Notes under the pieces: model-generated
Seen by the model: the letters and a program-made list of their open reading frames with translations, nothing else
What the model was told of the DNA's origin: nothing
Database searches by the model: none
Program-made: the position numbers and the translations under genes
Part shown: in pieces, positions 14,216 to 54,161 of the stretch
How positions within the stretch are numbered: position 1 is the stretch's first letter
How the letters are laid out: each line of letters begins with the position of its first letter
Source: Pseudomonadota bacterium
Lineage (GTDB): Bacteria; Pseudomonadota; Alphaproteobacteria; SHVP01
NCBI GenBank assembly: GCA_022566715.1
Contig: JADFIH010000001.1
Span: 2,420-66,419, forward strand
Length of the DNA stretch: 64,000 nucleotides
Reading direction: 5' to 3'

Positions 14216-15022
14216 GTGGCGAAGTTCCAACAGGAAATGATTTCGGTCGCGGGGTGCCGAGTGAGCGTGTTCCGCGGTGGCGCGGGTGAGCCCCTTCTGC
14301 ACCTGCACGGCGCGGGCGTTGTCCGCAGCGTTATGCCGTTCATGGAATTTCTGGCCGAGACCTTCGACGTGATCATCCCGCAGCATCCGGGCTTCGGCGA
14401 CTCGGACGAACCCGATTGGCTGGAGGGGATGGGGGACCTGGCCTATTTCTATCTCGAATTCATGGAGCAACTGGATCTGCGCGGCGTTCATCTCGGCGGA
14501 ACGAGCCTGGGCGGCTGGCTCGCCATGGAGGTCGCCCTGCGCAACACCGAACGCCTGAAAACGCTCACGCTGGTCGGCGCCGGCGGCATCCATGTCGAGG
14601 GAGTCGAGCGCGGCAAATCACGCGAATGGGGACCGCAGGAGACCATGCGCCAAGTGATCTACAACCAGGTGCTGGCCGAGAAGATGATCGCCACGATGCC
14701 GGCGAACCCGGAACAGGACCCGGTTCACCAGAAAAACCGGCGCACCATCGGCAAGCTTGTCAAGCCGCCGACCTACAATCCCGATATCCAGAAGTGGGCG
14801 CACATCGTGAAGATTCCGGTTCACATCATTTGGGGAGATCACGACCGCCTGCTGCCGATGGCGTTCGCGCCCGAATACGCGAAGCTGTTCGACGACGCCA
14901 CGCTCGACATCATGAAAGAGTGCGGCCACATTCCCTACATGGAGAAGCCGCGCGAGTATGCGGACGTGATCACCCGGTTCATCCAAAAGGCCACGCAGAC
15001 GGAGAACGCCGGCGCCAGGTAA
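14216..15022 (+). CDS. alpha/beta-fold hydrolase
   Basis: 268 aa. HLHGAG, GTSLGG nucleophile elbow, catalytic His near C-terminus (ECGHIP). Confidence 0.75.
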   Translation: MAKFQQEMISVAGCRVSVFRGGAGEPLLHLHGAGVVRSVMPFMEFLAETFDVIIPQHPGFGDSDEPDWLEGMGDLAYFYLEFMEQLDLRGVHLGGTSLGGWLAMEVALRNTERLKTLTLVGAGGIHVEGVERGKSREWGPQETMRQVIYNQVLAEKMIATMPANPEQDPVHQKNRRTIGKLVKPPTYNPDIQKWAHIVKIPVHIIWGDHDRLLPMAFAPEYAKLFDDATLDIMKECGHIPYMEKPREYADVITRFIQKATQTENAGAR

Positions 15023-15108
15023 GGCGCACCGGCGTCCCGCCCGCCAATACGGCGAGGGGAAGAGTTCTGAAACCGCAAACCCTGGGCGATGTCACGGTTT
15101 CGAAACTG

Positions 15109-15936
15109 GTGGAATTCGAAACCCCGTTCATCGGGCGGCAATACGCCCTCCCCGAGTCCACGCGCGAGGTTTTCGACGCCCACCGGGATTGGCTCGCGCC
15201 GCATTTCTTCGATTACTCGGCCGATCTCCTGATCTTCAGCTTCCATACCTTTATCCTGAAGACGCCGCATCACACGATCCTTGTCGATACCTGCGTCGGC
15301 AACCACAAGGAGCGGCCGCTCGAGCACTGGCATATGCGCGACGGGCCCTATCTCGAAGACATGCGCGCGGCCGGCGTGGCGCCCGAATCGGTCGACTATG
15401 TCATGTGCACGCATCTGCACGCCGATCACACCGGCTGGAACACCCGGCTTCGGGATGGCCGTTGGGTCCCCACGTTTCCCAACGCCAAGTATTTGTTTTC
15501 AAAAGACGATTGGAACTTCTTCCAAGACCTGAAAGAGGGCGATCCCGGCTATGCCGCCCTGCGGGACAGTGTCCTGCCGATCATGGAGGCGGGACAGGCG
15601 CAACTCGTGGACAAGGACTTTCAGTTCGACGACGCGGTCCGCGTGGAGCCGACGCCGGGGCACACGCCCGGCCATTACGCCGTCCATCTGTCCTCGAAAG
15701 GCCGGGAGGGCGTTCTGTCCGGCGATCTCATCCATAGTCCGGTGCAGATCAACCGGCCGGACTGGTCGAGCAAGTTCTGCAACGACCCCGACCGGTCCCG
15801 CGAGACGCGCATCGAGTTCGTCGACCGATACGCCGATACGGACGTCATGCTTTTCGCCGCGCACTTCGGCGGGCCGACGGCGGGGCACATTCGCGCGGAC
15901 GGCGATGCCTGCAAGTTTCAGGTCGTCGAGGGCTAG
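15109..15936 (+). CDS. MBL-fold metallo-hydrolase (AHL-lactonase-like)
   Basis: HLHADHTGW (HxHxDH) zinc motif plus downstream His/Asp ligands. No in-frame ATG between the upstream stop (15022) and the motif, so start is uncertain. GTG at 15109 is the first canonical start; an alternative lies near 15064. Confidence 0.6.
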   Translation: MEFETPFIGRQYALPESTREVFDAHRDWLAPHFFDYSADLLIFSFHTFILKTPHHTILVDTCVGNHKERPLEHWHMRDGPYLEDMRAAGVAPESVDYVMCTHLHADHTGWNTRLRDGRWVPTFPNAKYLFSKDDWNFFQDLKEGDPGYAALRDSVLPIMEAGQAQLVDKDFQFDDAVRVEPTPGHTPGHYAVHLSSKGREGVLSGDLIHSPVQINRPDWSSKFCNDPDRSRETRIEFVDRYADTDVMLFAAHFGGPTAGHIRADGDACKFQVVEG

Positions 15937-16120
15937 GCCGAGCCGTTGTTTTTGAGCCGGTGAACTCGTCCTTCGACAGGCTCAAGACGAGGCCTCATGC
16001 TGAGCTTGTCGAAGTATGGGGGAGTTCCCTCTAGGAGGTTCTCCGCCTGAGCACGTTGATGGCCTCATGCTGAGCTTGTCGAAGTATGAGGGGGGAATAA
16101 AGGCGCCGTCGTTACCGGTT
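15937..16120. repeat. REP-like palindromic repeats (two units, LSLSK-type)
   Basis: GGCCTCATGCTGAGCTTGTCGAAGTATG(G/A)GGGG occurs twice. It is the reverse complement of the unit at 10820-10850. Confidence 0.6.
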
Positions 16121-16612
16121 TCATTTTGGTTTTCGGCGAAACGGCGTCCTTCGAAGCGCCGTTTTACGCTTCAGCGGCGTCTTGCGTTTTAACGCCGTTT
16201 TTTGGACCAATGTTCGACGCGTCGGAGCTTTGCGGACTTTTCCGGTCGCTTGAGATTTGGAAACGCCGGTCTCGACCGGTCCGGGCTCAGTTTCAAGGCT
16301 GTGGCCAAGCGCAACGTTCGAGGTCCCGGCGGCCTCACCCGTGGCGACGTAAAGCGCGGCCTTTGAAGCCGTAACGGCGGGCAGCATGACGATAATTTCT
16401 CCCGCGCTATTGCGTGAAGGTTCAGGGATATCCTCACGGTTTGCCATGCGCGCGGCAATCGCCTCTTCAAGGCAATCGGCGGCGCGCGCGATCGCCTCCG
16501 CCACATCGGCGCCTTCGGTAAGCGCCTCCGGCAAATCGGGGAAACTCACGATCATGGTGCCGGACGGCGATTCCTCGAGGTCCGCGGGAAAGGCAAAGGT
16601 CGGGTTCGCCAT
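16121..16612 (-). CDS. HicB-family antitoxin-like protein with Lys/Arg-rich C-terminal tail
   Basis: N-terminal region (MIVSFPDLPEALTEGADVAEAIARAADCLEEAIAARM, then EDIPEPS) fits the HicB/UPF0150 fold. C-terminal 40 aa are KRKT/ALRRT repeats, histone-H1-like. No adjacent HicA. Confidence 0.45.
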   Translation of the reverse strand: MANPTFAFPADLEESPSGTMIVSFPDLPEALTEGADVAEAIARAADCLEEAIAARMANREDIPEPSRNSAGEIIVMLPAVTASKAALYVATGEAAGTSNVALGHSLETEPGPVETGVSKSQATGKVRKAPTRRTLVQKTALKRKTPLKRKTALRRTPFRRKPK

Positions 16613-16759
16613 CGTCAGTCCTCGGAATTTGGCGGGATCTGCTCGCAGTTGCTTAGGAAGTCTGGTCACAAATGCGGGCGAATACAGCCTACACAGAGGC
16701 CGGGTAAAATGTCCGAAAGTAAAGTGCTAAATCGGGCAAATGTGTCCGAACGGATTCCC

Positions 16760-16787
16760 AAAAAAAAGCGGCGCCCGAAGGCGCCGC
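16760..16787 (-). terminator. intrinsic terminator downstream of aceA
   Basis: Minus-strand read GCGGCGCC-TTCG-GGCGCCGC followed by T8, 40 nt after the aceA stop. Confidence 0.7.
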
Positions 16788-16824
16788 AATGGTTGAAAGG
16801 TCGGAGGGCCTTCCGGGCCGCGGA

Positions 16825-18144
16825 CTACTCCGCGGCCGTGTCCAGGGCCCCTTGGTGGAACTGGGCGTCTTCGGTCGAGTCCCTGAGCGCCGTCGTCGAG
16901 GACCGCCCGGCGCTGATCGTCATGGACACCGCATCGAAATAACCCGTGCCGACTTCGCGTTGATGGCGGGTGGCCGAGTAGCCCCGGCCTTCGGCGGCGA
17001 ACTCGGCATCTTGCAGCTCCGAGTAGGCGGCCATGCCGCGCTCGGCGTAGCCGGTGGCCAATTCGAACATGCCGTAGTTGAGGGCATGGAACCCCGCCAG
17101 GGTCACGAACTGGAACTTATAGCCCATGGCCCCGATCTCGCGTTGGAAGCGGGCGATATCGTTGCGGTCGAGATTGGCCGACCAGTTGAACGACGGCGAG
17201 CAGTTGTAGGCCAGCATCTTGCCGGGAAATTCCGCGTGGATCGCATCGGCAAAGCGCCGCGCCTGATCGAGGTTGGGCGTGGACGTCTCCATCCACAGAA
17301 GGTCGGCGTAAGGCGCGTAGGCGAGCCCGCGCGCGACGCAGCGCTCGAAGGAGAGCCCCTCCTTGTGCCGGTAGTAGCCCTCGGCCGTGCGCTCGCCGGT
17401 AATGAACGGCCGGTCGCGCTCGTCCACGTCGCTGGTCAGCAGCTTCGCGCTTTCCGCGTCGGTGCGGGCCAGGATGATCGTGGGCACGCCCATCACATCG
17501 GCGGCAAGCCGCGCCGCGGAAAGATTGGCGATGTGCTGCTGGGTCGGGATGAGCACCTTGCCGCCCATGTGACCGCACTTCTTTTCCGAAGCCAGCTGGT
17601 CCTCGAAGTGCACCGCGGCCACGCCCGATTCGATGTAGGCCTTGGTCAATTCGAAGGCGTTGAGCACGCCGCCGAAGCCCGCTTCGGCGTCCGCGACGAT
17701 CGGCGCAAACCAGTGCGTGGCACCGCCGCCTTCCATGTGCTGGATTTGATCGGCGCGCTGGAAGGTGTTGTTGATGCGCCGCGCAAGCTCGGGGCCGCTG
17801 TCGACGGGATAGAGACTCTGGTCGGGGTACATGGCGCCCGCCGAATTCGCATCGGCGGCGACCTGCCAGCCCGAGAGATAAATGGCCTTGAGACCCGCGC
17901 GCACCATTTGCATGGCCTGGTTGCCCGACAGCGCGCCTAGCGATGCGACGTAATCTTCCTCATGCAGAAGCGTCCACAGGCGATCGGAACCCATGCGGGC
18001 AAGCGTGTGCTCGACGTGAACGGAGCCGCGCAGTTTGGCCACGTCAGCCTTGGTGTAGCCGCGCCGGATGCCGTCCCAGCGGTTCGCCGGAACCGGCGCC
18101 GTCGTCCAATCAAGCGCAGCCATGTCAAGTGTCGCGTCAGCCAT
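16825..18144 (-). CDS. aceA: isocitrate lyase
   Basis: KKCGHMGGK catalytic motif. About 440 aa. Probable start [11 protein letters not shown]. Confidence 0.9.
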
Positions 18145-18155
18145 GATTAATCGCC

Positions 18156-19793
18156 TCAAGTATCGGTGGTGGAAACAAGCCGCTCGTAGGCCGGCAGCGT
18201 CAGAAATTCGGCGAGCTCGGGCTCGAAGATCAGGGTCTCGAACAGTTCGCTGGCGTCTTTTAGGTGCCCCTCGCCAAACACCCCTTGGGGACTACTCGAG
18301 ACCTTCTCGAGCTCCTCGCCCAAGACCTTGCGGATCAGGTCCTCGTCGATCACCCGTCCATCGTCGAGCTTCGCCCCATGGTGGCGCCACTGCCAGACCT
18401 GGGTGCGGGAGATTTCGGCGGTCGCCGCGTCCTCCATCAGGTTGTTGAGGGGGACGCAGCCCGACCCGGCGAGCCAGGCGGCGGTGTACTGAATGCCGAC
18501 GTTGAGGTTCAGACGCAGGCCGGCCTCGGTGATGTCGCCCTCGGGCACCGCGAGCAGGTCCGCCGCCTTCACGTCGACATCCTGACGCACGCGCGCCAAC
18601 TGATTCGCCTCGGGCATTTTTTCGTCGAAGATGGCCATGGCAAGGGGCACCAGACCGGGATGGGCGACCCAGGTGCCGTCGTGGCCGTCGCCGGCTTCGC
18701 GCTCCTTGTCGGCGCGCACCTTCGCAAGCGCCTCCTCGTTGGCGTCGGGGTCGTTCTTGATGGGAATCTGCGCCGCCATGCCGCCGATGGCGTGCGCGCC
18801 GCGGTGGTGGCAGGTCTTGATCGCCAACAAGCTGTAGGACCGCAGGAAATGCCGCGTCATGGTGATGGCGCCGCGGTCCGGCAGCACGAAGTCCGGGTTA
18901 TTCCGGAAGCGCTTGATGAAGCTGAAGATGTAGTCCCAGCGCCCACAGTTGAGCCCGGCGATGTGGTCGCGCAGCTCGTACAGAATTTCGTCCATCTCGA
19001 AGGCCGCGAGAATGGTCTCGATGAGGACGGTGGCCCTGATGGTTCCCGTGGGCAGGCCCAGGGTCGCCTGCGCCGATTCAAAGACGTCGTTCCACAAACG
19101 CGCTTCCAGGTGGCTCTCGATCTTCGGCAGGTAGAAGTAGGGACCCGTTCCCTTATCCAGCGCCGCGCGCGCGTTGTGGAAGAAATACAGCGCGAAATCG
19201 AACAGCGCCGCCGACACCGGCGCGCCGTCCACCCGCATGTGAACCTCTTCGAGGTGCCAGCCCCGCGGCCGGACGATGAGAACCGCGGTTTTTTCGGCGA
19301 GCTCGTAGTGCTTGCCGGATTTCGGATCGTCGAAGCTGATGTCGCCCCGAACCGCATCGCGCAGGTTGATTTGCCCCTCGACGATGTTGCGCCAAGTCGG
19401 CGACAGCGAGTCCTCGAGGTCGGCCATGAAGACCTTGGCGCCCGAATTCAGCGCGTTGATGATCATTTTTCGCTCGACCGGCCCGGTGATCTCCACCCGG
19501 CGGTCCCGCAGGTCCTTCGGGGCCGGCGCGACCTTCCAGTCGCCGGCGCGAACGTCGGCGGTGGAGGCGAGGAAATCCGGCTTGGCCCCCTGGTCCAAGC
19601 GGGCTTGAATCTCCTGGCGGCGTTCGAGCAGCTTTTTGCGTTGGGCGCCGAATTGCCGTTCGAGGTCGGCGACGAAGCCAAGCGCCTCGGGCGTAAGGAT
19701 CTGATCGCCGCCCGGCGGCAGGTCGCCAACGAGTTCGACCCCGTTGCTCGGGTTGGGATTCTTGGGGTCCATCAGCTTGGTCTCAATGCTCAT
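18156..19793 (-). CDS. aceB: malate synthase A
   Basis: Collinear with E. coli AceB ([58 protein letters not shown]). Start [10 protein letters not shown]. Confidence 0.9.
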
Positions 19794-20027
19794 TCCCTGC
19801 CTCATTCGCGTGGTTCCGTGGCCCGGAACGAAGCGAAAGACCCGTTCCGGATGGATGTCCGGGCTACGGATACGACCCACTAGACCGGCGCGGCAGGCCG
19901 GTCTCAAGTGACGGATCGGGGCTAAGCACCTTGTCCGCAGCCTCGCCATAAGGGTAACCCGGTTACCAAAGATGAGATAGCCGGGGCCCAACGCCTGTCG
20001 GGCCACGAAGCCGCCCGACCGGCCCAT

Positions 20028-20260
20028 TTCGGGCCACGGGTGGCGGAAATCTTGGGTTTAGCGCCGCCTTCCGTCCTCCCAATCTCCACGGAGGCAACAG
20101 ACCAGCCTCCACGAACCTTATCCATATTGACAAACTATCGAGAGAAGTCCGCAATGCATTGAAAGTAAAAGAGTTATGTTGTATATATTGCAAATCTATT
20201 ATTAGAGATTTTGTAAAATTTGTAAAGTTCGAGGGCGCGACCGTGGCGGATAAGAAAGCG
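20028..20260. promoter_or_regulatory. divergent aceBA / regulator promoter region with AT-rich TTTG(C/T)AAA operator-like motifs
   Basis: A roughly 100-bp AT-rich tract in a 65% GC genome. Contains TTGCAAA, TTTGTAAAA, TTTGTAAAG and the imperfect palindrome CAAATCTATTATTAGAGATTTTG. These resemble RamB/ScfR-type boxes. Confidence 0.5.
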
Positions 20261-21670
20261 ATGCTTGGCCATAAAATCCGCCGCTTTCGGCAGGATCTGG
20301 GCCTGAACCAATCGGAACTGGCCGAACAGCTCGAGATATCGCCAAGCTATCTCAACCTGATCGAGCACAACCAGCGCCCGGTCACCGTGCCGCTGCTGTT
20401 CCGGCTCAGTCAGTCCTTCGATATCGACCTGCGCGAGTTCGCGGAGGATGAGGAGGCGCGTCACGCGGTGGGCCTGGCGGAGGTGTTCGGCGACCCCCTG
20501 TTCGAGGGGCAGGCGCCGGGCCAGCAGGACATCCGCGCGGTGGCGGCGGCCAGCCCCGCGGCCGCCCGCTCGGTGATTACGCTTTACAACGCCTATCGGT
20601 CGATCCGCGAGGACGCCCAGGCGCTGGCCCACCAACTGGCCGACGACGACGCACTCCAAGCGCTCGGTCAGCGCGGCCAGCCCTTGCAAGAGGTCCGCGA
20701 TTATCAGGAATCGCGCTCCAACCATTTCCCGGAACTCGAGACGGCGGCGGAAGAACTTCGCGGCGGATCGCAGGACGACCTCTATCAAGGCTTGGTGGAC
20801 CATTTGCGGCAAGTCCACGGCCTCGGCGTCAAGATCATGCCCGTCGACGTGCTCCAGGACACGATACGGCGTCACGACCAGCACCGCCGGCGCGTACTGC
20901 TGTCGGAGATCCTGCCGCCCTCGGGCCGCATCTTCCATCTGGCGGCGCAGATCGCGCTTCTGGACCACAGCGACATGCTGGACCGCATCGGCGAGGGTGC
21001 CGATTTCACCAGCGACGATGCCCGCAAGCTGATGCGGGCCGGCCTGTCCAATTACTTCGCGGCGGCCGTGATGATGCCCTACGATGCGTTCCTGACGGCG
21101 GCCCGTGAGCTTCGCTTCGACATCGACATCCTGTGCCGCCGCTTTGGCGCCAGTTTCGAGCAGGTCGCCCACCGGCTGACGACCCTTCAGCGTCCCGCCG
21201 CCCGTGGCATCCCGTTCTTTTTCCTGCGCGTCGATGCCGCCGGCAATGTGTCCAAGCGGCTGTCCGGAGGCGGCTTTCAGTTCGCGCGCTTCGGCGGCGC
21301 CTGCCCGCGCTGGATCGTACACCACGTCTTTCGCAGCCCCGGCGCCATTCGGACGCAGGTGGTCCAGCTGCCTGACGGCGGCGCGTTCTTCACCCTCGCC
21401 CGAACCGTCGATCCCATCGCCGGATGGAGCCAAGGCCCGGGCCCGCAATATGCGATCGGGCTGGGCTGCGATATCAAGGACGCGGGCAAGCTCGTCTATG
21501 CCGACGGCGTGGACCTCAAGAACTTGGACGCGGCAACGCCGATCGGTGTGAGCTGCCGTCTTTGCGAACGCCTGGACTGTAGCCAGCGCGCCTATCCGCC
21601 CATCAACCACCGCCTGAGCATCGAAGATCATATCCGGCGGCTGACGCCCTTTACCTTCGCGCAATCGTAG
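20261..21670 (+). CDS. ScfR/RamB-family transcriptional regulator (XRE HTH, ImmA/IrrE-like metallopeptidase-like and DUF2083 domains)
   Basis: N-terminal XRE HTH (LGHKIRRFRQDLGLNQSELAEQLEISPSYLNLIEHNQR). Long C-terminal region typical of short-chain acyl-CoA regulators. Divergent from aceBA. The ORF-track start at 20159 lies in the AT-rich promoter, so ATG 20261 is used (or GTG 20243). Confidence 0.75.
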   Translation: MLGHKIRRFRQDLGLNQSELAEQLEISPSYLNLIEHNQRPVTVPLLFRLSQSFDIDLREFAEDEEARHAVGLAEVFGDPLFEGQAPGQQDIRAVAAASPAAARSVITLYNAYRSIREDAQALAHQLADDDALQALGQRGQPLQEVRDYQESRSNHFPELETAAEELRGGSQDDLYQGLVDHLRQVHGLGVKIMPVDVLQDTIRRHDQHRRRVLLSEILPPSGRIFHLAAQIALLDHSDMLDRIGEGADFTSDDARKLMRAGLSNYFAAAVMMPYDAFLTAARELRFDIDILCRRFGASFEQVAHRLTTLQRPAARGIPFFFLRVDAAGNVSKRLSGGGFQFARFGGACPRWIVHHVFRSPGAIRTQVVQLPDGGAFFTLARTVDPIAGWSQGPGPQYAIGLGCDIKDAGKLVYADGVDLKNLDAATPIGVSCRLCERLDCSQRAYPPINHRLSIEDHIRRLTPFTFAQS

Positions 21671-30935: not shown

Positions 30936-31508
30936 ATGATCGGTAAACTGTGGTCCTGGTTCTGGGGGCCAACCACCAGATATGGCTGGGGTGCGATTTT
31001 CATTGTCGGCGGTGCCGCGGGCGTAATCTTCTGGGGCGGTTTCAACACGTTCATGGAATATACCAACACGCTTGGGTTCTGTATCGGGTGCCACGAGATG
31101 CGCGATACCGTGTTTCCGGAATACAAGAAGACGGTCCATTTCACCAACCGGACGGGCGTGCGCGTCATCTGCTCCGACTGCCATGTGCCCAAGGACTGGA
31201 CCCCTAAGCTGCTGCGCAAGATCAGGGCGACCAACGAGCTCTATCACAAGGTCGTCGGCACCATTAATACGCCGGAGAAGTTCGAAGCCAAACGTCTGGA
31301 GATGGCGGAGAAGGTTTGGGCCTCCATGGAGGCCTCGGATTCGCGCGAATGCCGCAACTGCCATTCCTTCGAGGCCATGGATTTTTCGAAGCAAGCGCGA
31401 CGCCCGCGGGAAAAACATCCCGCCGCCGCGCAGGCGGGCAAGACCTGCATCAATTGCCACAAGGGAGTCGCGCACAAGCTGCCCGAGGATTACGAAGACG
31501 ACGACTGA
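30936..31508 (+). CDS. NapC/NirT-family tetraheme cytochrome c (CymA-like quinol dehydrogenase)
   Basis: N-terminal TM anchor and four CxxCH motifs (CIGCH, CSDCH, CRNCH, CINCH). Confidence 0.8.
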   Translation: MIGKLWSWFWGPTTRYGWGAIFIVGGAAGVIFWGGFNTFMEYTNTLGFCIGCHEMRDTVFPEYKKTVHFTNRTGVRVICSDCHVPKDWTPKLLRKIRATNELYHKVVGTINTPEKFEAKRLEMAEKVWASMEASDSRECRNCHSFEAMDFSKQARRPREKHPAAAQAGKTCINCHKGVAHKLPEDYEDDD

Positions 31509-31697
31509 ACGTCGCTGCCTGCCGGTTAGCCCGATGTGGCGCGCGGCGGAACCGGGTCAATGCGACAGGCCGCGGCCCGGCCGTTAACCCCTACGAAGCC
31601 ACGATAGTAGACCCCATATCCATGGCGAACCCACTGCATATCCGGGTTCCGAGTTGTACTCCGCGCCAGTCCGGCGGCCGATACTCAGAATCTGGCA

Positions 31698-32108
31698 TCA
31701 ACCGGCATATTCCCGGAGCTTCAAAAGAAAGTCTCTGAAATCGTTATCGTGTTCCAGCGCATGTCTTAGAGACCTTTCAAGGTACTTCCCTAAGTCGTCT
31801 GAAATATTACGAAGTTTTTCGACAACAACAAGTCTAATAACACTACTCAAAACCTTTGCCATGGCACTATGTTGATCCTTGTGACTAACAAGGCTCGGAT
31901 AATTACAACGCTCCATCACTTCCTCTTCGTGGCGGAAATGGATTTGCTCGGATGATTGTAGGTGCAATAGTTCGCGCCTTATGATGGGCAGGTCTTGCGA
32001 AGCTATTGCAGATGTTATCCGATCCACGGATTCAGAAAGTAGCTGATGTTCCGTGCTCATAAGCTCCAAGACATCGTCAAGGATCTCAGCGGGAAGTCTC
32101 GAAGCCAT
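31698..32108 (-). CDS. bacteriohemerythrin-like protein
   Basis: His/Glu/Asp ligand pattern (HFRHEEEVM, HKDQH, HDNDF). Gene GC is about 45%, against about 65% elsewhere. Confidence 0.65.
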   Translation of the reverse strand: MASRLPAEILDDVLELMSTEHQLLSESVDRITSAIASQDLPIIRRELLHLQSSEQIHFRHEEEVMERCNYPSLVSHKDQHSAMAKVLSSVIRLVVVEKLRNISDDLGKYLERSLRHALEHDNDFRDFLLKLREYAG

Positions 32109-32241
32109 CGCGTATCTTGCGGCGAGTAGGTGCGTTTTGGGGCACACGGGTGACCCCGAACGGTACCGTATCCTCCACTAGATTCCTAACAGCGCGACCT
32201 GGTGCGCAGGCTCCGCCGGTTTTTTTGCCGGCGTGACGAGC

Positions 32242-41597: not shown

Positions 41598-41906
41598 CGC
41601 GTCTCTGAATGCTTTTGTTTGGGCGGACCCGGTGGGCCTGTCCTGGATTTCGGTTTCGTCCACGTTGATTCTGCCTCCTGCCCGGCTACGAATCCGGGCC
41701 CTGACGACAAGCCTCCAATTCAGGGTTTGGCGGGGCCTTACCGACCCCCGGACGCCTCAAGTTTTGCCCCAAAGGGGCGGGACACGGGGCCACCGCCCTG
41801 GTTGGCGATTATACCACAGGGACCGCGCCGAGGCCAGGACTCGACGCCCCGCGGGACGCCGCCGGTTGGCGCGCAAAGCACTGAAATCAAGCCGTATTTT
41901 TGGCGC

Positions 41907-43307
41907 CTAGGTCTCGAGCATGCGGCGCAGAAGATCGACGTCCTCGGCCAGATTGCTATCGCTCTCGCGCAACTCGTTGATCCGCTTGACGGCATGCATG
42001 ACCGTGGTGTGGTCGCGCCCGCCGAACTTGCGGCCAATCTCGGGCAAGGACCGCGAGGTCAACTGCTTGGCCAGGAACATCGCCACCTGGCGTGGCCGGG
42101 CCACGGCCCGCGCCCGGCGCGCGGAATGCATCTCCGAGATACGGATGTTGTAGTGCTCGGCCACCCGTTTCTGGATGTCCTCGATGGTGATGCGGCGGTC
42201 GTTGGACCGCAGGAGGTCACGCAACACCTCTTGGGTAGTGTCGATCGTGATGGCCTGCCCCACCAGATTGGAATAGGCCAGCACGCGGTTCAGGGCGCCT
42301 TCCAGTTCGCGCACGTTCGAGGTTATGCGGTGCGCCAGAAATTCCAGCACCTGAAGCGGTACGTTCTTGGCGTCGAGGTGCTGGACCTTCGACTGCAGAA
42401 TGCCGACGCGCAGCTCGTAGTCGGTCGAATGGATATCGGCCACGAGCCCCCAGCCGAGCCGCGAGCGCATGCGTTCCTCCATCCCATCGAGGTTCGAGGG
42501 CGAGCGGTCGCCGGAAATAATGATCTGCCGGTTCTGATCCACCAACGCATTGAATGTATGGAAGAATTCTTCTTGGGTGGATTCCTTGCCGCTAATGAAC
42601 TGCACGTCGTCGATCATCAGCACGTCGACCGAACGGAACAGTTGTTTGAACTGCATCACGTCCTTGAACCGCAGCGCGCGGATGAACTGGTACATGAACT
42701 TTTCCGCCGACAGGTAGATCACCTTACGGTCGGGATCGCGTTCGCGGATGTGCCAGGCGATGGCGTGCATGAGATGGGTCTTGCCCAACCCAACACCGCC
42801 GTAGAGGAAGAGAGGATTAAAGGGCACGGTCGGAGATTCGGCGGCGCGCCGCGAGGCCGCATACGCGAGTTCGTTGGTTTTGCCAACGACGAAATTTTCG
42901 AAAGTGAAGCGCGGGTCGAGTGGTGCGCCCGGGTCGGACAACGCGGACATCGGTCCGGCCGGCGTCGGGCGCCCGGCCTCAGCCCCTTTCGCCGCCTCCG
43001 GCGCAGGTTCGGACACCCGAGGTCCCGCGGGACGAACGTGAATCTCGGCCGCCGCGGTCGTATCGAACTCGTCGTTCCACAACGATCTTATCTTTTCCGC
43101 GTAGTGGGAAATCACCCAATCGCGCATGAACCGGGTCGGCAGGGTCATCATCATCCGGCCATCCCGCCCACGGGTCAGGTCGAGCTGGCGCAACCAACTG
43201 TTGAATGCGGCGTCACCTACCTCAGCTTTAAGTCGCCCCCTCAGGCGTTGCCAACTCTGGGAATCCTCGGGCGAAAGCCCCTGAGACGATGACACCGGCC
43301 CCACCAT
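41907..43307 (-). CDS. dnaA: chromosomal replication initiator protein DnaA
   Basis: AAA+ Walker A GGVGLGKTHL, Walker B LMIDDVQF, C-terminal DNA-binding domain (VARPRQVAMFLAKQLTSRSLPEIG). Confidence 0.95.
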   Translation of the reverse strand: MVGPVSSSQGLSPEDSQSWQRLRGRLKAEVGDAAFNSWLRQLDLTRGRDGRMMMTLPTRFMRDWVISHYAEKIRSLWNDEFDTTAAAEIHVRPAGPRVSEPAPEAAKGAEAGRPTPAGPMSALSDPGAPLDPRFTFENFVVGKTNELAYAASRRAAESPTVPFNPLFLYGGVGLGKTHLMHAIAWHIRERDPDRKVIYLSAEKFMYQFIRALRFKDVMQFKQLFRSVDVLMIDDVQFISGKESTQEEFFHTFNALVDQNRQIIISGDRSPSNLDGMEERMRSRLGWGLVADIHSTDYELRVGILQSKVQHLDAKNVPLQVLEFLAHRITSNVRELEGALNRVLAYSNLVGQAITIDTTQEVLRDLLRSNDRRITIEDIQKRVAEHYNIRISEMHSARRARAVARPRQVAMFLAKQLTSRSLPEIGRKFGGRDHTTVMHAVKRINELRESDSNLAEDVDLLRRMLET

Positions 43308-43308
43308 A

Positions 43309-43725
43309 TCAGGCCTGAATCCAGGGAAGGCCGGCGGCCTTCCAGCCCCCGGTCACGCCGCGGTGCCGGTCGCCGTCAAGATCGCCCTCGAACCCACCGG
43401 CTACGTTGAAGCACTTCGAATACCCTGCCGCCGTCATGGCGACCGCAGCCGCTTGGGACCGTGCGCCCGACCGGCAAAGAAATAAGATGCTCGCATCGGT
43501 GTCGGTGGCCTGCGCCCGAACCTCCTCGACGAAGGCCGGGTTCTGCTCCATCTTCGGTAGTGTTTGCCAAGACACCCGAACGGCCTGTTTCCGGATTCCA
43601 GAAAGATCGGGGGCGCCGACGAAGTTCCACTCCGCGGCCGTGCGCACGTCGACGAGTACCGCCGAGGATTCGTCGCCCAATCGGCGCCACGCTTCTTCGA
43701 CACTAATATCGCCTGAGTACGTCAT
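43309..43725 (-). CDS. rhodanese-domain sulfurtransferase
   Basis: Single rhodanese domain with active-site loop CRSGARS. Its stop codon abuts the dnaA start codon. Confidence 0.75.
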   Translation of the reverse strand: MTYSGDISVEEAWRRLGDESSAVLVDVRTAAEWNFVGAPDLSGIRKQAVRVSWQTLPKMEQNPAFVEEVRAQATDTDASILFLCRSGARSQAAAVAMTAAGYSKCFNVAGGFEGDLDGDRHRGVTGGWKAAGLPWIQA

Positions 43726-44268
43726 CGGAATTTGTATCTACCAATCTTCGGCTTGGAGCTATTCGCATCGAACTATTTTTTGAACCGATTATTTCGAGCG
43801 ATCATCCACCGCCCATGGCTCGTTCTATTGCGGCCCCTCAAACCATCACGTTTTAATTTTTTCCGTATGTGTTTACGACTCGAAATTTTATTGTGACTCA
43901 AGAATCGAAGTACGCTAGCGGCGACAGATCAATTGAACAATTGAACCGCAGCCCCACTCAGTACACTTCAAATTATCAAGTAATACTTCGGAGGCCCTCC
44001 CTTGCCCCCGGGTCGTATGCAACACATTAATGCCCCGCCCGGCGCCATGCAACTGCCTCGCCGTCCGCGAACGAGAAATTACCTCGCCGCATAGGCACAT
44101 GGGCAACACACTACATTTTGCTTGAAGTTGGCACACCGTCCCAAGATGTTTGGGCATCCTGTTTGAACAACAGAAAATTTTTCAACCCTGCGATTTGGCG
44201 ACGGCATGCCCCGAGGCACAAAAAAACCGCGCCAACCCCGGGCGCGGTTTTGTGTCGAAAAAAAACTT
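43726..44268. promoter_or_regulatory. AT-rich rpsT-dnaA intergenic region: candidate oriC / dnaA promoter
   Basis: A 540-bp region of markedly lower GC. Contains a DnaA-box-like ATCATCCAC, tandem AATTGAAC-AATTGAAC, and three GANTC sites within 35 bp. Confidence 0.4.
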
Positions 44269-44535
44269 TCAGACCGACATCGATTTAACGCGGCGCGACA
44301 GTTTCGACACGCGGCGCGATGCGGTGTTCTGTTTCATCACGCCCCGCCGAACACCACGCATGAGCTCTGGCTCGGCCTTCTTCAGCGCGTCCGCGGCCGC
44401 TTCACGGTCGCCACCTGCAACAGCGGTTTCGACATTCTTGATATGGGTGCGAATCCGGCTGACGCGCGCACGATTGATCGCGGTGCGGGTCTTGGTGCGG
44501 CGAATGCGCTTTTGGGCTGACTTATGATACGCCAT
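44269..44535 (-). CDS. rpsT: 30S ribosomal protein S20
   Basis: MAYHKSAQKRIRRTKTRTAINRARVSRIRT is a near-canonical S20 sequence. Confidence 0.9.
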   Translation of the reverse strand: MAYHKSAQKRIRRTKTRTAINRARVSRIRTHIKNVETAVAGGDREAAADALKKAEPELMRGVRRGVMKQNTASRRVSKLSRRVKSMSV

Positions 44536-46974: not shown

Positions 46975-47020
46975 CCACTAGAGCGGTTCCGACTTAGTCG
47001 GAACCACTCTAGCTTTTTGT
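46975..47020 (+). terminator. orphan plus-strand intrinsic terminator (possible 3' end of an unannotated small RNA)
   Basis: 17-bp stem CTAGAGCGGTTCCGACT / AGTCGGAACCACTCTAG followed by CTTTTTGT. No plus-strand CDS lies upstream, and a 10-bp GC hairpin sits at 46895-46935. Confidence 0.5.
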
Positions 47021-51442: not shown

Positions 51443-51895
51443 ATGCTTCATCTATCGAAAAAGATGCTGTTCGCCCTCGAGGCCGTGGTCGACATCGCCT
51501 ATAACGCCGGCAGCGAGCCCGTGCAATCCAAGGAGATCACGCGGCGCCAGGGCATCCCCCAACGCTACCTCGAGCAAGTCATGCAACGCCTTGTCCGTGC
51601 CGGCATCCTCAAGGGTGTGCGCGGCCCGCGCGGCGGTTATCGCCTGGCCCGGGAGCGCCGGCGCGTCACCGTCGGCCAAATCGCGCAGGTGGTGTACGAC
51701 CTCGATGAAGACGATGGCCCGGCCTATCCCACCGCGTCGCCGCTGGGGACGAAAGTGGTCCAACCCATGTGGGCGGAACTCCAGGACGGTTTGATGAATC
51801 GCCTCGACGCGATCACCGTTGAGGATTTATGCCGCCGCGCCCACGATACGGGTGTCGAAAGCGAGTCCCGGAAACGGCTGGACTACACGATTTGA
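51443..51895 (+). CDS. Rrf2-family transcriptional regulator lacking the IscR Fe-S cysteine triad (CymR-like)
   Basis: Winged-helix Rrf2 N-terminus. Only one Cys in the C-terminal half, so not IscR/NsrR. Immediately upstream of cysK. Confidence 0.8.
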   Translation: MLHLSKKMLFALEAVVDIAYNAGSEPVQSKEITRRQGIPQRYLEQVMQRLVRAGILKGVRGPRGGYRLARERRRVTVGQIAQVVYDLDEDDGPAYPTASPLGTKVVQPMWAELQDGLMNRLDAITVEDLCRRAHDTGVESESRKRLDYTI

Positions 51896-51916
51896 GGCGC
51901 GCCCGGCGCGTTCGGA

Positions 51917-52895
51917 GGTAACCGGTATGGACCCCCGCCCGGAGGCCCAGAAATGGTGCCGCGGCCAAATCTATGACAGCGTTGTCGATACCATCGGCGC
52001 GACGCCCTTGGTGCGCCTGCGCGCCCTCTGCGCCGAAGCGAACTGCAAAGCCGACGTTGTCGGCAAGCTTGAGTATTTCAACCCGTTGGCCTCGGTGAAG
52101 GACCGTATCGGCCGGGCCATGATCGAGGCCGCCGAACGCGAGGGCCGCATTCGCGACGGCACGGTCTTGGTCGAGCCCACGTCGGGCAATACGGGCCTGG
52201 CGCTGGCGTTCATATGCGCCGCCAAGGGATACCGCTTGATCCTGACCATTCCGGATAATACGACGGCCGGGCGGCGCAAGATGCTGGAGCTTCTGGGCGC
52301 CGAGATTCGCCTGACGCCGGCCTCGCAAGGTATGCGCGGCGCGATCCTCAAGGCGCACGAGATCGTTGAGGACCTGCCGGATGCGCTACTGTTGCAGCAG
52401 TTCGAGAATCCGGCCAATCCGGAGGCGCACCGCACCACGACGGGCGAGGAGATTTGGACGGATACGGCGGGTGAAGTCGATGTACTGGTGGCGGGCGTGG
52501 GCACCGGGGGCACGTTGACGGGCGTGGCGGAGTTGCTTAGGGAGCGCAAGCCGGAGGTTATGATCGTCGCCGTGGAGCCTGAGGATTCGGCTGTCCTGAC
52601 GGGTGGCCCCGCCGGGACGCATGCCATCGAAGGCATTGGCGCGGGGTTCAAGCCCGCCATATTGAAGGCGGAGCTGATTGACGAGATCGTGACCATCGCC
52701 AACGAAACGGCCCGGACGACCTCGCGCCGCGCCGCGCGCCTGCAAGGGCTGGCGGTGGGAATCTCCTCGGGCGCGGCCATCGCCGCGGCGCTGGAGGTGG
52801 GCTCGCGCCCCGGCATGGAGGGCAAGCTGATCGTGGCCGTGTTGCCGGATTTCGCCGAACGCTACCTATCGACACCCCTGTTCGACGATCTCTAG
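51917..52895 (+). CDS. cysK: cysteine synthase (CysK/CysM family, PLP-dependent)
   Basis: PLP-lysine motif SVKDRIG, TSGNTG, GVGTGGT. RBS GGAGG precedes ATG 51917. Confidence 0.85.
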
Positions 52896-52915
52896 GGCCC
52901 CTGTTCGAAACCCTC

Positions 52916-53722
52916 ATGGCTGAACCGATGGACTTTTCCGAGGAGCAAATCCAGCGCTATGCCCGGCACATCATCCTTTCCGAGGTGGGCGGCACGGGGC
53001 AGGCCAAGCTGCTCGAGTCCAAGGTCCTGGTCATCGGGGCGGGGGGCCTTGGATCGCCCGTGTTGATGTATCTCGCCGCGGCCGGGGTCGGAACCATCGG
53101 CATCGTCGACGATGACCAAGTCAGCCTGTCGAACTTGCAGCGCCAGATCATTCACACGAGCGGCCGGATCGGCGAGAATAAGACGGAAAGCGCCGCCGCG
53201 ACCCTGGCGGCCATCAATCCGGACGTATCCGTCGTCCGGCACACCCTGCGCCTGAACGCCGGCAACGTCATGGACCTGATCGCGGATTACGATGTCGTGG
53301 CCGACGGGTCGGACAATTTCGAGACCCGCTTCCTCGTCAACGACGCCTGCCATATCGGCGGAAAGACCCTGGTCTCGGCCGCCATCCTGCGCTTCGACGG
53401 TCAGCTTTCCACCTTCAGATCCCACGAAGGGGACGGCCATCCGTGCTACCGCTGCATCTTCCCCGAGGCGCCGCCCCCTGGCCTGATCCCGAGTTGCGCC
53501 GAGGGGGGCGTGTTGGGAGCGTTGGCGGGCACGATGGGATCAATGCAGGCCACCGAGGTCATCAAGGAACTCCTGGGCATCGGCGAGAGCCTGTCGGGCA
53601 CCCTATTGATCTACGATGGCCTCGCAACGTCCTTCCGCAAGGTGAGGGTCCGCCCCGACCCGGCCTGCAAGCTGTGCGGGGCGCAGGCCACCATTACGGA
53701 CCTGTCCGCCCATGCCGCCTGA
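52916..53722 (+). CDS. ThiF/MoeB-family E1-like adenylyltransferase (MoeZ-like, no rhodanese domain)
   Basis: Nucleotide-binding GAGGLGS, then a Cys4 zinc site (CYRC ... CKLC). Confidence 0.8.
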   Translation: MAEPMDFSEEQIQRYARHIILSEVGGTGQAKLLESKVLVIGAGGLGSPVLMYLAAAGVGTIGIVDDDQVSLSNLQRQIIHTSGRIGENKTESAAATLAAINPDVSVVRHTLRLNAGNVMDLIADYDVVADGSDNFETRFLVNDACHIGGKTLVSAAILRFDGQLSTFRSHEGDGHPCYRCIFPEAPPPGLIPSCAEGGVLGALAGTMGSMQATEVIKELLGIGESLSGTLLIYDGLATSFRKVRVRPDPACKLCGAQATITDLSAHAA

Positions 53723-54161
53723 TTCCGAACCGCCCCGCCCGTCCAAGCTCTCGCTCGTCGTCTCTTCGGGCGATTTCGACAAGGTGCATTATGCCTTGGC
53801 CATGGCGAGCGCCGCGGTGGCCGTCAATGTGCCGGCGACCCTGTTTTTCACCATGGAAGCGATCCACGCGCTCAAGAAACCGGGCGGCGGAGAGTCCCCG
53901 GGCTGGCACGTTTTGCGCGCGGGAGACGGACGGCGGGCGCGCGAAGTCGACGAGCAATACGCTAGCCGCGGCGTCGCCCGCTTCAATGAGCTCTTGGAGG
54001 CCTGCCGCGACCTGGGCGCGGCCTTCATGATCTGCGACATGGGGCTGCGCGCCACCGGGCTCGAAATGGCCGATCTGCGCGACGATATCGACTACCGGCA
54101 AGGCGGACTCGTGACCTTCCTGAACGACGCCCGCGCCGATGGCGCCATGGTGTTCATCTAA
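53712..54161 (+). CDS. DsrE/DsrF-like sulfur-relay family protein
   Basis: DsrE fold pattern with a candidate active Cys in FMICDMG. Start overlaps the thiF/moeB 3' end. Confidence 0.6.
   Translation: MPPDSEPPRPSKLSLVVSSGDFDKVHYALAMASAAVAVNVPATLFFTMEAIHALKKPGGGESPGWHVLRAGDGRRAREVDEQYASRGVARFNELLEACRDLGAAFMICDMGLRATGLEMADLRDDIDYRQGGLVTFLNDARADGAMVFI

Follow-up and report, generated by a model that had tools for sequence, protein, structure and literature searches.

The AT-rich gap upstream of a rhodanese–dnaA pair in an alphaproteobacterium is probably a dnaA control region rather than a replication origin

Introduction

We asked whether an AT-rich gap lying 5' of a rhodanese gene and dnaA is a chromosomal origin of replication (oriC) or the control region of the dnaA transcription unit. 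The gap lies in a stretch of 64,000 nucleotides of alphaproteobacterial DNA, all of which was analysed and is hereafter called the window. The original prediction had named the gap the best oriC candidate in the window, with a dnaA/rhodanese promoter as the fallback. Mistaking the gap for the origin would mislead replichore assignment and coverage-based growth-rate estimates for this uncultured lineage. We regard the gap as most probably a control region of an ordinary intergenic kind, which comprises the rpsT terminator followed by the promoter and a long untranslated leader of the rhodanese–dnaA operon.

Gene order and composition of the gap

Pfam and NCBIfam searches placed fpg, an enoyl-CoA hydratase gene, rpsT, the gap, rhodanese, dnaA, dnaN, recF and gyrB on the minus strand in this order, which bore out the order that had been read from the sequence between rpsT and gyrB. 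rpsO-pnp, located further right of the gap, is likewise on the minus strand. The genes next to the gap were as follows:

44269–44535, minus strand: coding sequence of rpsT (ribosomal protein S20), which borders the gap upstream; Pfam Ribosomal_S20p, E 4e-24
43309–43725, minus strand: single-domain rhodanese, 138 aa; Pfam Rhodanese, E 2.9e-12, with the catalytic loop CRSGARS in the translation
41907–43307, minus strand: dnaA; TIGR00362 DnaA, E 1.9e-170, and Pfam

On identical contigs, rpsT is called as an 88-aa gene. Judged by identical proteins, the sequence belongs to an uncultured alphaproteobacterial MAG, GCA_022566865.1, and also occurs in several metagenomes. The gap between rpsT and rhodanese (43726–44268) is 543 bp long and has a GC content of 0.49 compared with 0.637 for the window; thus, it is indeed much poorer in GC than its surroundings, as had been claimed. 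In its rhodanese-proximal half (43700–44000), GC was 0.38–0.46 per 100 nt, and this segment is among only four places in the window that fall below 0.48 per 200 nt. Elsewhere, a 752-bp ORF-poor gap (31490–32241) lies 5' of a CobD-like gene, with GC of 0.42–0.47 at 31651–32050, and the approximately 1.8 kb at 15000–16800 contains no ORF with a Pfam family match. A glyoxylate-shunt cluster (16825–21670) consists of isocitrate lyase (16825–18159, minus strand), malate synthase (18156–20057, minus strand) and a divergent HTH/ScfR-type regulator (approximately 20246–21670, plus strand), with an AT-rich intergenic region at 20051–20350.

The gap was rejected as a repeated or mobile element, as nothing similar to it was seen in the rest of the window or, same-species contigs excepted, in other loci. 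An 80-aa ORF at 43915–44157 is not coding; it had no family match, and the conserved block contains frame-breaking indels. Rfam returned nothing at gathering thresholds across the window, and the sub-threshold matches fell only on the terminator hairpin described below. Strain-level SNPs among eight near-identical contigs were too few to inform.

A DnaA homolog search combined with contig look-ups yielded eight loci with 78–95% DnaA identity, all of which showed the order rpsT-gap-rhodanese-dnaA-dnaN-recF(-gyrB). Six sequences, those of the window and of five relatives with 83–95% identical DnaA, were aligned (alignment A1), and per-position conservation was taken from A1. In addition, we scanned species genomes with DnaA and metagenomes with rhodanese, which yielded approximately 85 independent alphaproteobacterial loci with the order fpg-ech-rpsT-gap-(rhodanese)-dnaA-dnaN and gaps of mostly 300–800 bp.

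The rpsT-proximal end of the gap is occupied by a terminator:

44216–44251, minus strand: rpsT intrinsic terminator; 11-bp perfect stem (44251–44241 / 44233–44223), 7-nt loop, then U7

Its RNA fold was calculated at -20.8 kcal/mol (z -2.55), conservation in the six-sequence alignment peaked here at 0.88, and the words of the stem and T-run were found again in many relatives. With its GC-rich hairpin and U-run directly after the rpsT stop codon, this structure has the hallmarks of a rho-independent terminator, and rpsT transcription ends at this strong hairpin and U-run (44251–44216). Another terminator-like structure was observed in the divergent cdd/ubiE intergenic region (46978–47019), where a 35-nt near-perfect palindrome, CTAGAGCGGTTCCGACT T AGTCGGAACCACTCTAG, is followed by CTTTTTG, yet no gene ends there.

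Origin motifs and GC skew

If the gap were oriC or overlapped it, DnaA would act on weak, non-consensus boxes and the AT-rich stretch at approximately 43840–43900 would be unwound. The location of the gap beside dnaA-dnaN-recF-gyrB and its low-GC segment, one of the lowest in the window, are in keeping with such a role, as are its GANTC sites, which are also present in Caulobacter Cori. We scanned both strands of the whole window for the DnaA box TTATCCACA and found no perfect match, three matches with one mismatch (none in the gap) and 94 sites at ≤2 mismatches. The gap was not enriched: it held 2 sites at ≤2 mismatches, compared with approximately 0.8 expected, and one of these was inside the rpsT terminator. 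Without any box of ≤1 mismatch in the gap, its single real 7/9 match is at about chance level:

43802–43810, plus strand: DnaA-box-like 9-mer TCATCCACC, 7/9 to TTATCCACA in the mismatch scan; adjoins a species-specific 26-nt insertion (43775–43800)

A DnaA-box-like 9-mer of 7/9 had been predicted, and one exists; however, it is not the string ATCATCCAC given for 43801–43809, which on comparison by eye matched TTATCCACA position for position at only 2/9. Another word, TTATCAAGT at 43973–43981, matched the DnaA box at 6/9. The 9-mer sits where the gap is least conserved, a stretch of 40 nt (43808–43769) with the conservation minimum of 0.05–0.18. The adjoining insertion is missing from locus L169, in which DnaA is 95% identical, and the L169 sequence aligned to the box is GTTCAATAT; that is, the site is unconserved and already absent at 95% DnaA identity. 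Among the homologous gaps, a box of ≤1 mismatch was found in just 18 of 86, with a maximum of 2 per gap.

In E. coli, the dnaA region has a DnaA box between two promoters, which results in autoregulation, and GATC methylation and SeqA act there. The gap resembles this region in that a single initiator-box-like site and methylation-type motifs lie 5' of dnaA, which would suggest autoregulation. However, the box in the window is a 7/9 match and unconserved, the motif is GANTC instead of GATC, and two promoters were not evident.

The gap has no TTAA-N7-TTAA CtrA site (≤1 mismatch) and no IHF consensus, and no TCCCCA W-box was seen on reading its sequence. Although an AT-rich stretch is present, the gap contains no repeated AT-rich 13-mers, only the 8-nt tandem considered below. 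The genes on both sides of the gap, rpsT included, share one orientation (minus), and hemE, DUF299, parAB and gidAB were not found in the 64-kb window. The Caulobacter origin is located at hemE/CCNA_00001 (PMC6393856), and the predicted origins of sphingomonads and Azospirillum also sit at hemE. The gap shares with these hemE-type origins its intergenic, AT-rich character, its GANTC sites and its closeness to replication genes. By contrast, Cori is situated between hemE and DUF299 and combines DnaA sites of the G-box and W-box types with five CtrA sites and one IHF site; nothing of this was found in the gap or the window.

GC skew within 64 kb decides neither for nor against an origin. Over 20 kb on either side of the gap, strand-corrected GC3 skew was -0.033 (left) and +0.016 (right), which is an origin-like direction, but the two values are only approximately 1.9 sd apart. 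The replication-related skew term after strand correction was -0.007 on the left and +0.016 on the right of the gap and was not significant. For the change point of the corrected skew, z was approximately 1.0 at the gap; the best value, approximately 2.0 before multiple-testing correction and not significant, was near 48 kb rather than 44 kb. Raw cumulative GC skew falls throughout the right half of the window, but this trend misleads, since a coding-strand effect of -0.105 dominates the skew at third codon positions.

Two other gaps, dnaA–dnaN and the divergent cdd–ubiE, were considered as origins and rejected; both lack DnaA-box-like sites, and no 200-nt segment of either has a GC content under 0.48. 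The dnaA–dnaN spacer (41664–41906) contains an extended -10, TGGTATAAT (41816–41808), which suggests that dnaN has its own promoter, and a GANTC pair at 41667 and 41690 flanks the dnaN ribosome-binding site.

The gap did not hold up as the best oriC candidate: it lacks a DnaA-box cluster, CtrA and IHF sites and a hemE-type neighbourhood, and its one box-like 9-mer is unconserved. We regard its being or overlapping oriC as highly improbable. The fallback fared better: the rpsT–dnaA synteny of Caulobacter and a conserved promoter block in close relatives support the reading as a dnaA/rhodanese promoter.

Putative promoter, upstream blocks and putative leader

Footprinting with close relatives located the constrained part of the gap in its GC-richer centre. 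Besides the terminator, the conservation peaks of A1 were two upstream blocks, the -35/-10 and an element of 30 nt; over 44058–43969, conservation was 0.82–0.99. In the direction of transcription, the features were as follows:

44159–44185, minus strand: A/T tract TTGAAAAATTTTC, then palindrome CTGTTGTTCAAACAG; candidate UP element or operator, conservation 0.82–0.89
44089–44120, minus strand: block CAAAATGTAGTGTGTTGCCCATGTGCCTATGC; candidate regulator site, conservation 0.94, near-invariant in alignments A1 and A2
44024–44052, minus strand: putative sigma-70-type promoter; -35 TTGCAT (44052–44047), 17-nt spacer, -10 TAATGT (44029–44024)
43986–44015, minus strand: 30-nt invariant element CGACCCGGGGGCAAGGGAGGGCCTCCGAAG, just 3' of the -10; identical in 6/6 A1 sequences, conservation 0.98–0.99
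43726–44017, minus strand: predicted 5' leader of the rhodanese–dnaA mRNA, approximately 290 nt, from the putative promoter to the rhodanese ATG

The two blocks upstream of the putative promoter are likely regulator sites. Words resembling GAAAAATTTTCT were found in 21 distant gaps. In the second block, CAAAATGTAGTGTGTTGCCCATGTGC (44120–44095) formed the conservation peak of 0.94 in the six-sequence alignment, and in L172 and L173 the 3' portion of CAAAATGTAGTGTGTTGCCCATGTGCCTATGC reads as a perfect palindrome of 12 bp, CATGTGCACATG. This block (44089–44120) was also the top local match between the window and the distant locus L090, with a score of 28 that none of 200 shuffles reached.

Across the six sequences, TTGCATGGC was invariant and the -10 was TAATGT or TAGTGT. 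At 73–80% DnaA identity, the conserved blocks were still alignable, and the putative promoter aligned with TTGAAA/TTGCAA/TTGCCA ... TAGTCT/TAGGGT/TAGTGT. A TTGCnn-N17-TAGAGT(C) layout was present in approximately 20 more distant loci, 215–290 nt 5' of the first gene. The link from these to the window through L133 is marginal (E 0.04; 12 of 200 shuffles reached the score), and an nhmmer profile for which 20 distant relatives supplied the promoter block found no match in the gap of the window. A simple, strict E. coli-type consensus scan did not pass TTGCAT-N17-TAATGT. Because of the conservation in close relatives and the same layout in approximately 20 distant loci, we infer that 44052–44024 is the promoter of the rhodanese–dnaA operon and that 44017–43726 is its leader. 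That is, transcription of the operon would start from a sigma-70-type promoter, TTGCAT-N17-TAATGT, approximately 165 bp past the terminator.

The transcript would then have a leader of approximately 290 nt, whose first 30–60 nt are invariant among relatives and whose AT-rich remainder is fast-evolving; leaders delimited in the same way in relatives were 213–486 nt long. The AT-rich portion that had attracted attention as a candidate origin corresponds to the distal 250 nt of this putative leader, and conservation within the leader drops to 0.05–0.7. The 30-nt element can fold into a 7-bp hairpin (44010–43989) with an SD-like loop, AAGGGAGG, at -13.4 kcal/mol, with a z of only -0.98. Covariation of the leader hairpin with more distant relatives was weak, as RNAalifold gave only 4 pairs and -2.4 kcal/mol, and the full leader was not unusually structured (z -0.69).

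The tandem repeat, the GANTC sites and a possible promoter in the AT-rich half

The AT-rich half contains two further motifs that had been singled out, and both were present as described:

43931–43946, no strand assigned: tandem AATTGAAC x2 (GTTCAATT GTTCAATT on the gene strand), perfect in the window
43877–43906, no strand assigned: three GANTC sites starting at 43877, 43895 and 43902 and thus within 35 bp; cGATTCt, tGAGTCa and cGAGTCg on the gene strand

The tandem is imperfect in L169 and L170, reduced to a single copy in L173 and absent from L171. In view of these differences among relatives, it looks like a recent duplication by slippage, with TTCAATTGATC as the conserved core. The window has perfect tandems of period 8 at 4 places in all, and one inside the gap is only mildly unusual. 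Both the tandem 8-mer and the DnaA-box-like 9-mer appear, from the alignments, to be recent and lineage-specific, with no sign of constraint.

The GANTC triple is the sole one within 35 bp in the window; from 188 sites per 64 kb, a Poisson model predicts approximately 0.7 such triples in the window and approximately 0.006 for the gap. Compared with close relatives, the site at 43902 is species-specific. The site at 43895 is kept in 3 of 5 relatives (L169, L170 and L173), and that at 43877 in 3 of 5 as well (L169, L173 and L171), next to an invariant GTCGTA. Words resembling AAATTTCGAGTC were found in 11 distant gaps.

At the Caulobacter dnaA promoter, GANTC sites are functional (bioRxiv 10.1101/2024.03.01.583015; PMC6393856). 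A methylation-linked role is plausible for the sites of the window; the two semi-conserved GAGTC sites may serve for methylation of the CcrM type and adjust expression, like the GANTC sites of the Caulobacter dnaA promoter. Such a role is unproven because the sites lie approximately 115–145 nt 3' of the putative -10; in relatives, GANTC overlaps the -35 or -10.

These sites raise the alternative that the main, cell-cycle-regulated promoter is in the AT-rich half, at or just 3' of the GAGTC sites and controlled, like Caulobacter PdnaA, by CcrM methylation and GcrA, and that the central TTGCAT-N17-TAATGT is secondary or serves otherwise. The GcrA motif, which we take to be YGAKTCK, is fitted by cGATTCt and cGAGTCg of this half. 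The partial conservation of two GAGTC sites, the invariant GTCGTA and the recurrence of AAATTTCGAGTC-like words would also agree with it, as would the Caulobacter dnaA promoter, in which GAGTC lies 5' of the -35 (PMC6393856). However, the GAGTC sites are not followed by an acceptable -35/-10 pair, and conservation in the AT-rich half was 0.6–0.75, compared with 0.85–0.99 at the central element. The sole regular-expression match in this half was TTGTTC-N17-TAGCGT (43938–43910), which overlaps the tandem repeat and was rejected as a second promoter, as none of L169, L170 and L173 conserves its -10. Therefore, we consider a main promoter in the AT-rich half unlikely and retain the central element as the putative promoter of the rhodanese–dnaA operon.

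The dnaA control region in other Alphaproteobacteria

As a dnaA control region, the gap represents an ordinary arrangement in Alphaproteobacteria. The distant gaps were mostly 5–15 GC points under their locus average, and none had a DnaA-box cluster; the long, AT-richer spacer is, as far as composition and motifs tell, a family trait that is nowhere origin-like. The intergenic region between rpsT and dnaA in Caulobacter is defined as the dnaA promoter; a 155-nt leader controls dnaA translation there, and approximately 400 bp of the region can be replaced by Plac (PMC4489657). Like the gap, the Caulobacter crescentus promoter and leader lie between rpsT and the dnaA transcription unit; they are not the origin, and the gap is most probably not one either. 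The lengths are similar (approximately 400–500 bp), with a leader of 155 nt in Caulobacter crescentus and a predicted leader of approximately 290 nt in the window, and both control regions contain GANTC/GAGTC motifs. In the window, unlike in Caulobacter crescentus, a rhodanese gene, apparently coupled to dnaA, is located between the leader and dnaA, dnaN-recF-gyrB follow dnaA, and the GANTC sites are 3' of the putative promoter instead of 5' of the -35. The two regions share no detectable sequence similarity, and the window is known from sequence alone.

The wider set of relatives showed further promoter motifs. GTTC-N7-G[AT]TC abuts the -35 of the dnaA operon in 19 of 85 relatives, compared with 1.4 expected from shuffles (loci include L092, L099, L100, L109, L110, L114, L131, L136, L138, L141, L163, L009 and L010), and is absent from the window. 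This motif matches the alphaproteobacterial LexA box, GTTCN7GTTC (PMC12700426), which suggests that many Alphaproteobacteria place dnaA under SOS control through a LexA-like box at the -35. In many relatives (L109, L110, L138, L141, L160, L163, L164, L008, L009 and L131), the -10 is TAGAGTC, with an embedded GANTC that was lost in the lineage of the window (TAATGT). Rhodobacterales (L021–L041) have a fixed array of GATTC, 21 bp, GAGTCAAG, the -35, the -10 and GCGATTCAC.

The rhodanese–dnaA pair and its significance

The TGA stop codon of rhodanese lies 1 nt before the ATG of dnaA (TGAtATG), and translation of the two proteins is probably coupled. We compared the pair of the window (43309–43725 and 41907–43307) with loci L089–L176. 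dnaA was directly 3' of rhodanese in 53 of the 60 metagenome loci whose rhodanese was 51–64% identical, with a spacing of approximately 0–30 nt in the closest group. rpsT was located 5' of the pair in 38 of the 47 rhodanese loci with sufficient upstream sequence. Our literature search found nothing on a rhodanese gene upstream of dnaA. A sulfur-related cluster (51443–54161), located 8–10 kb from rhodanese, encodes an Rrf2 regulator, a PLP enzyme (cysteine-synthase-like), a ThiF/MoeB-family protein and a DsrE-like protein.

One could speculate that the rhodanese–dnaA pair, the invariant leader element and the upstream blocks together form an undescribed control module, widespread in Alphaproteobacteria, that ties DnaA synthesis to the sulfur or redox state. 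We find this doubtful; if it were true, the initiator would be translated together with a catalytically competent rhodanese, and the LexA-type box at the -35 in many relatives would add DNA-damage control.

For the chromosome of this lineage, the origin is to be sought elsewhere, most likely beside hemE. Within the gap, constraint is seen on the putative promoter, the two upstream blocks and the 30-nt leader element, and the eye-catching motifs are unconstrained. Modest leads on the regulation of the replication initiator in Alphaproteobacteria come from the conserved rhodanese–dnaA operon and from relatives whose promoters carry LexA-like motifs or GANTC.
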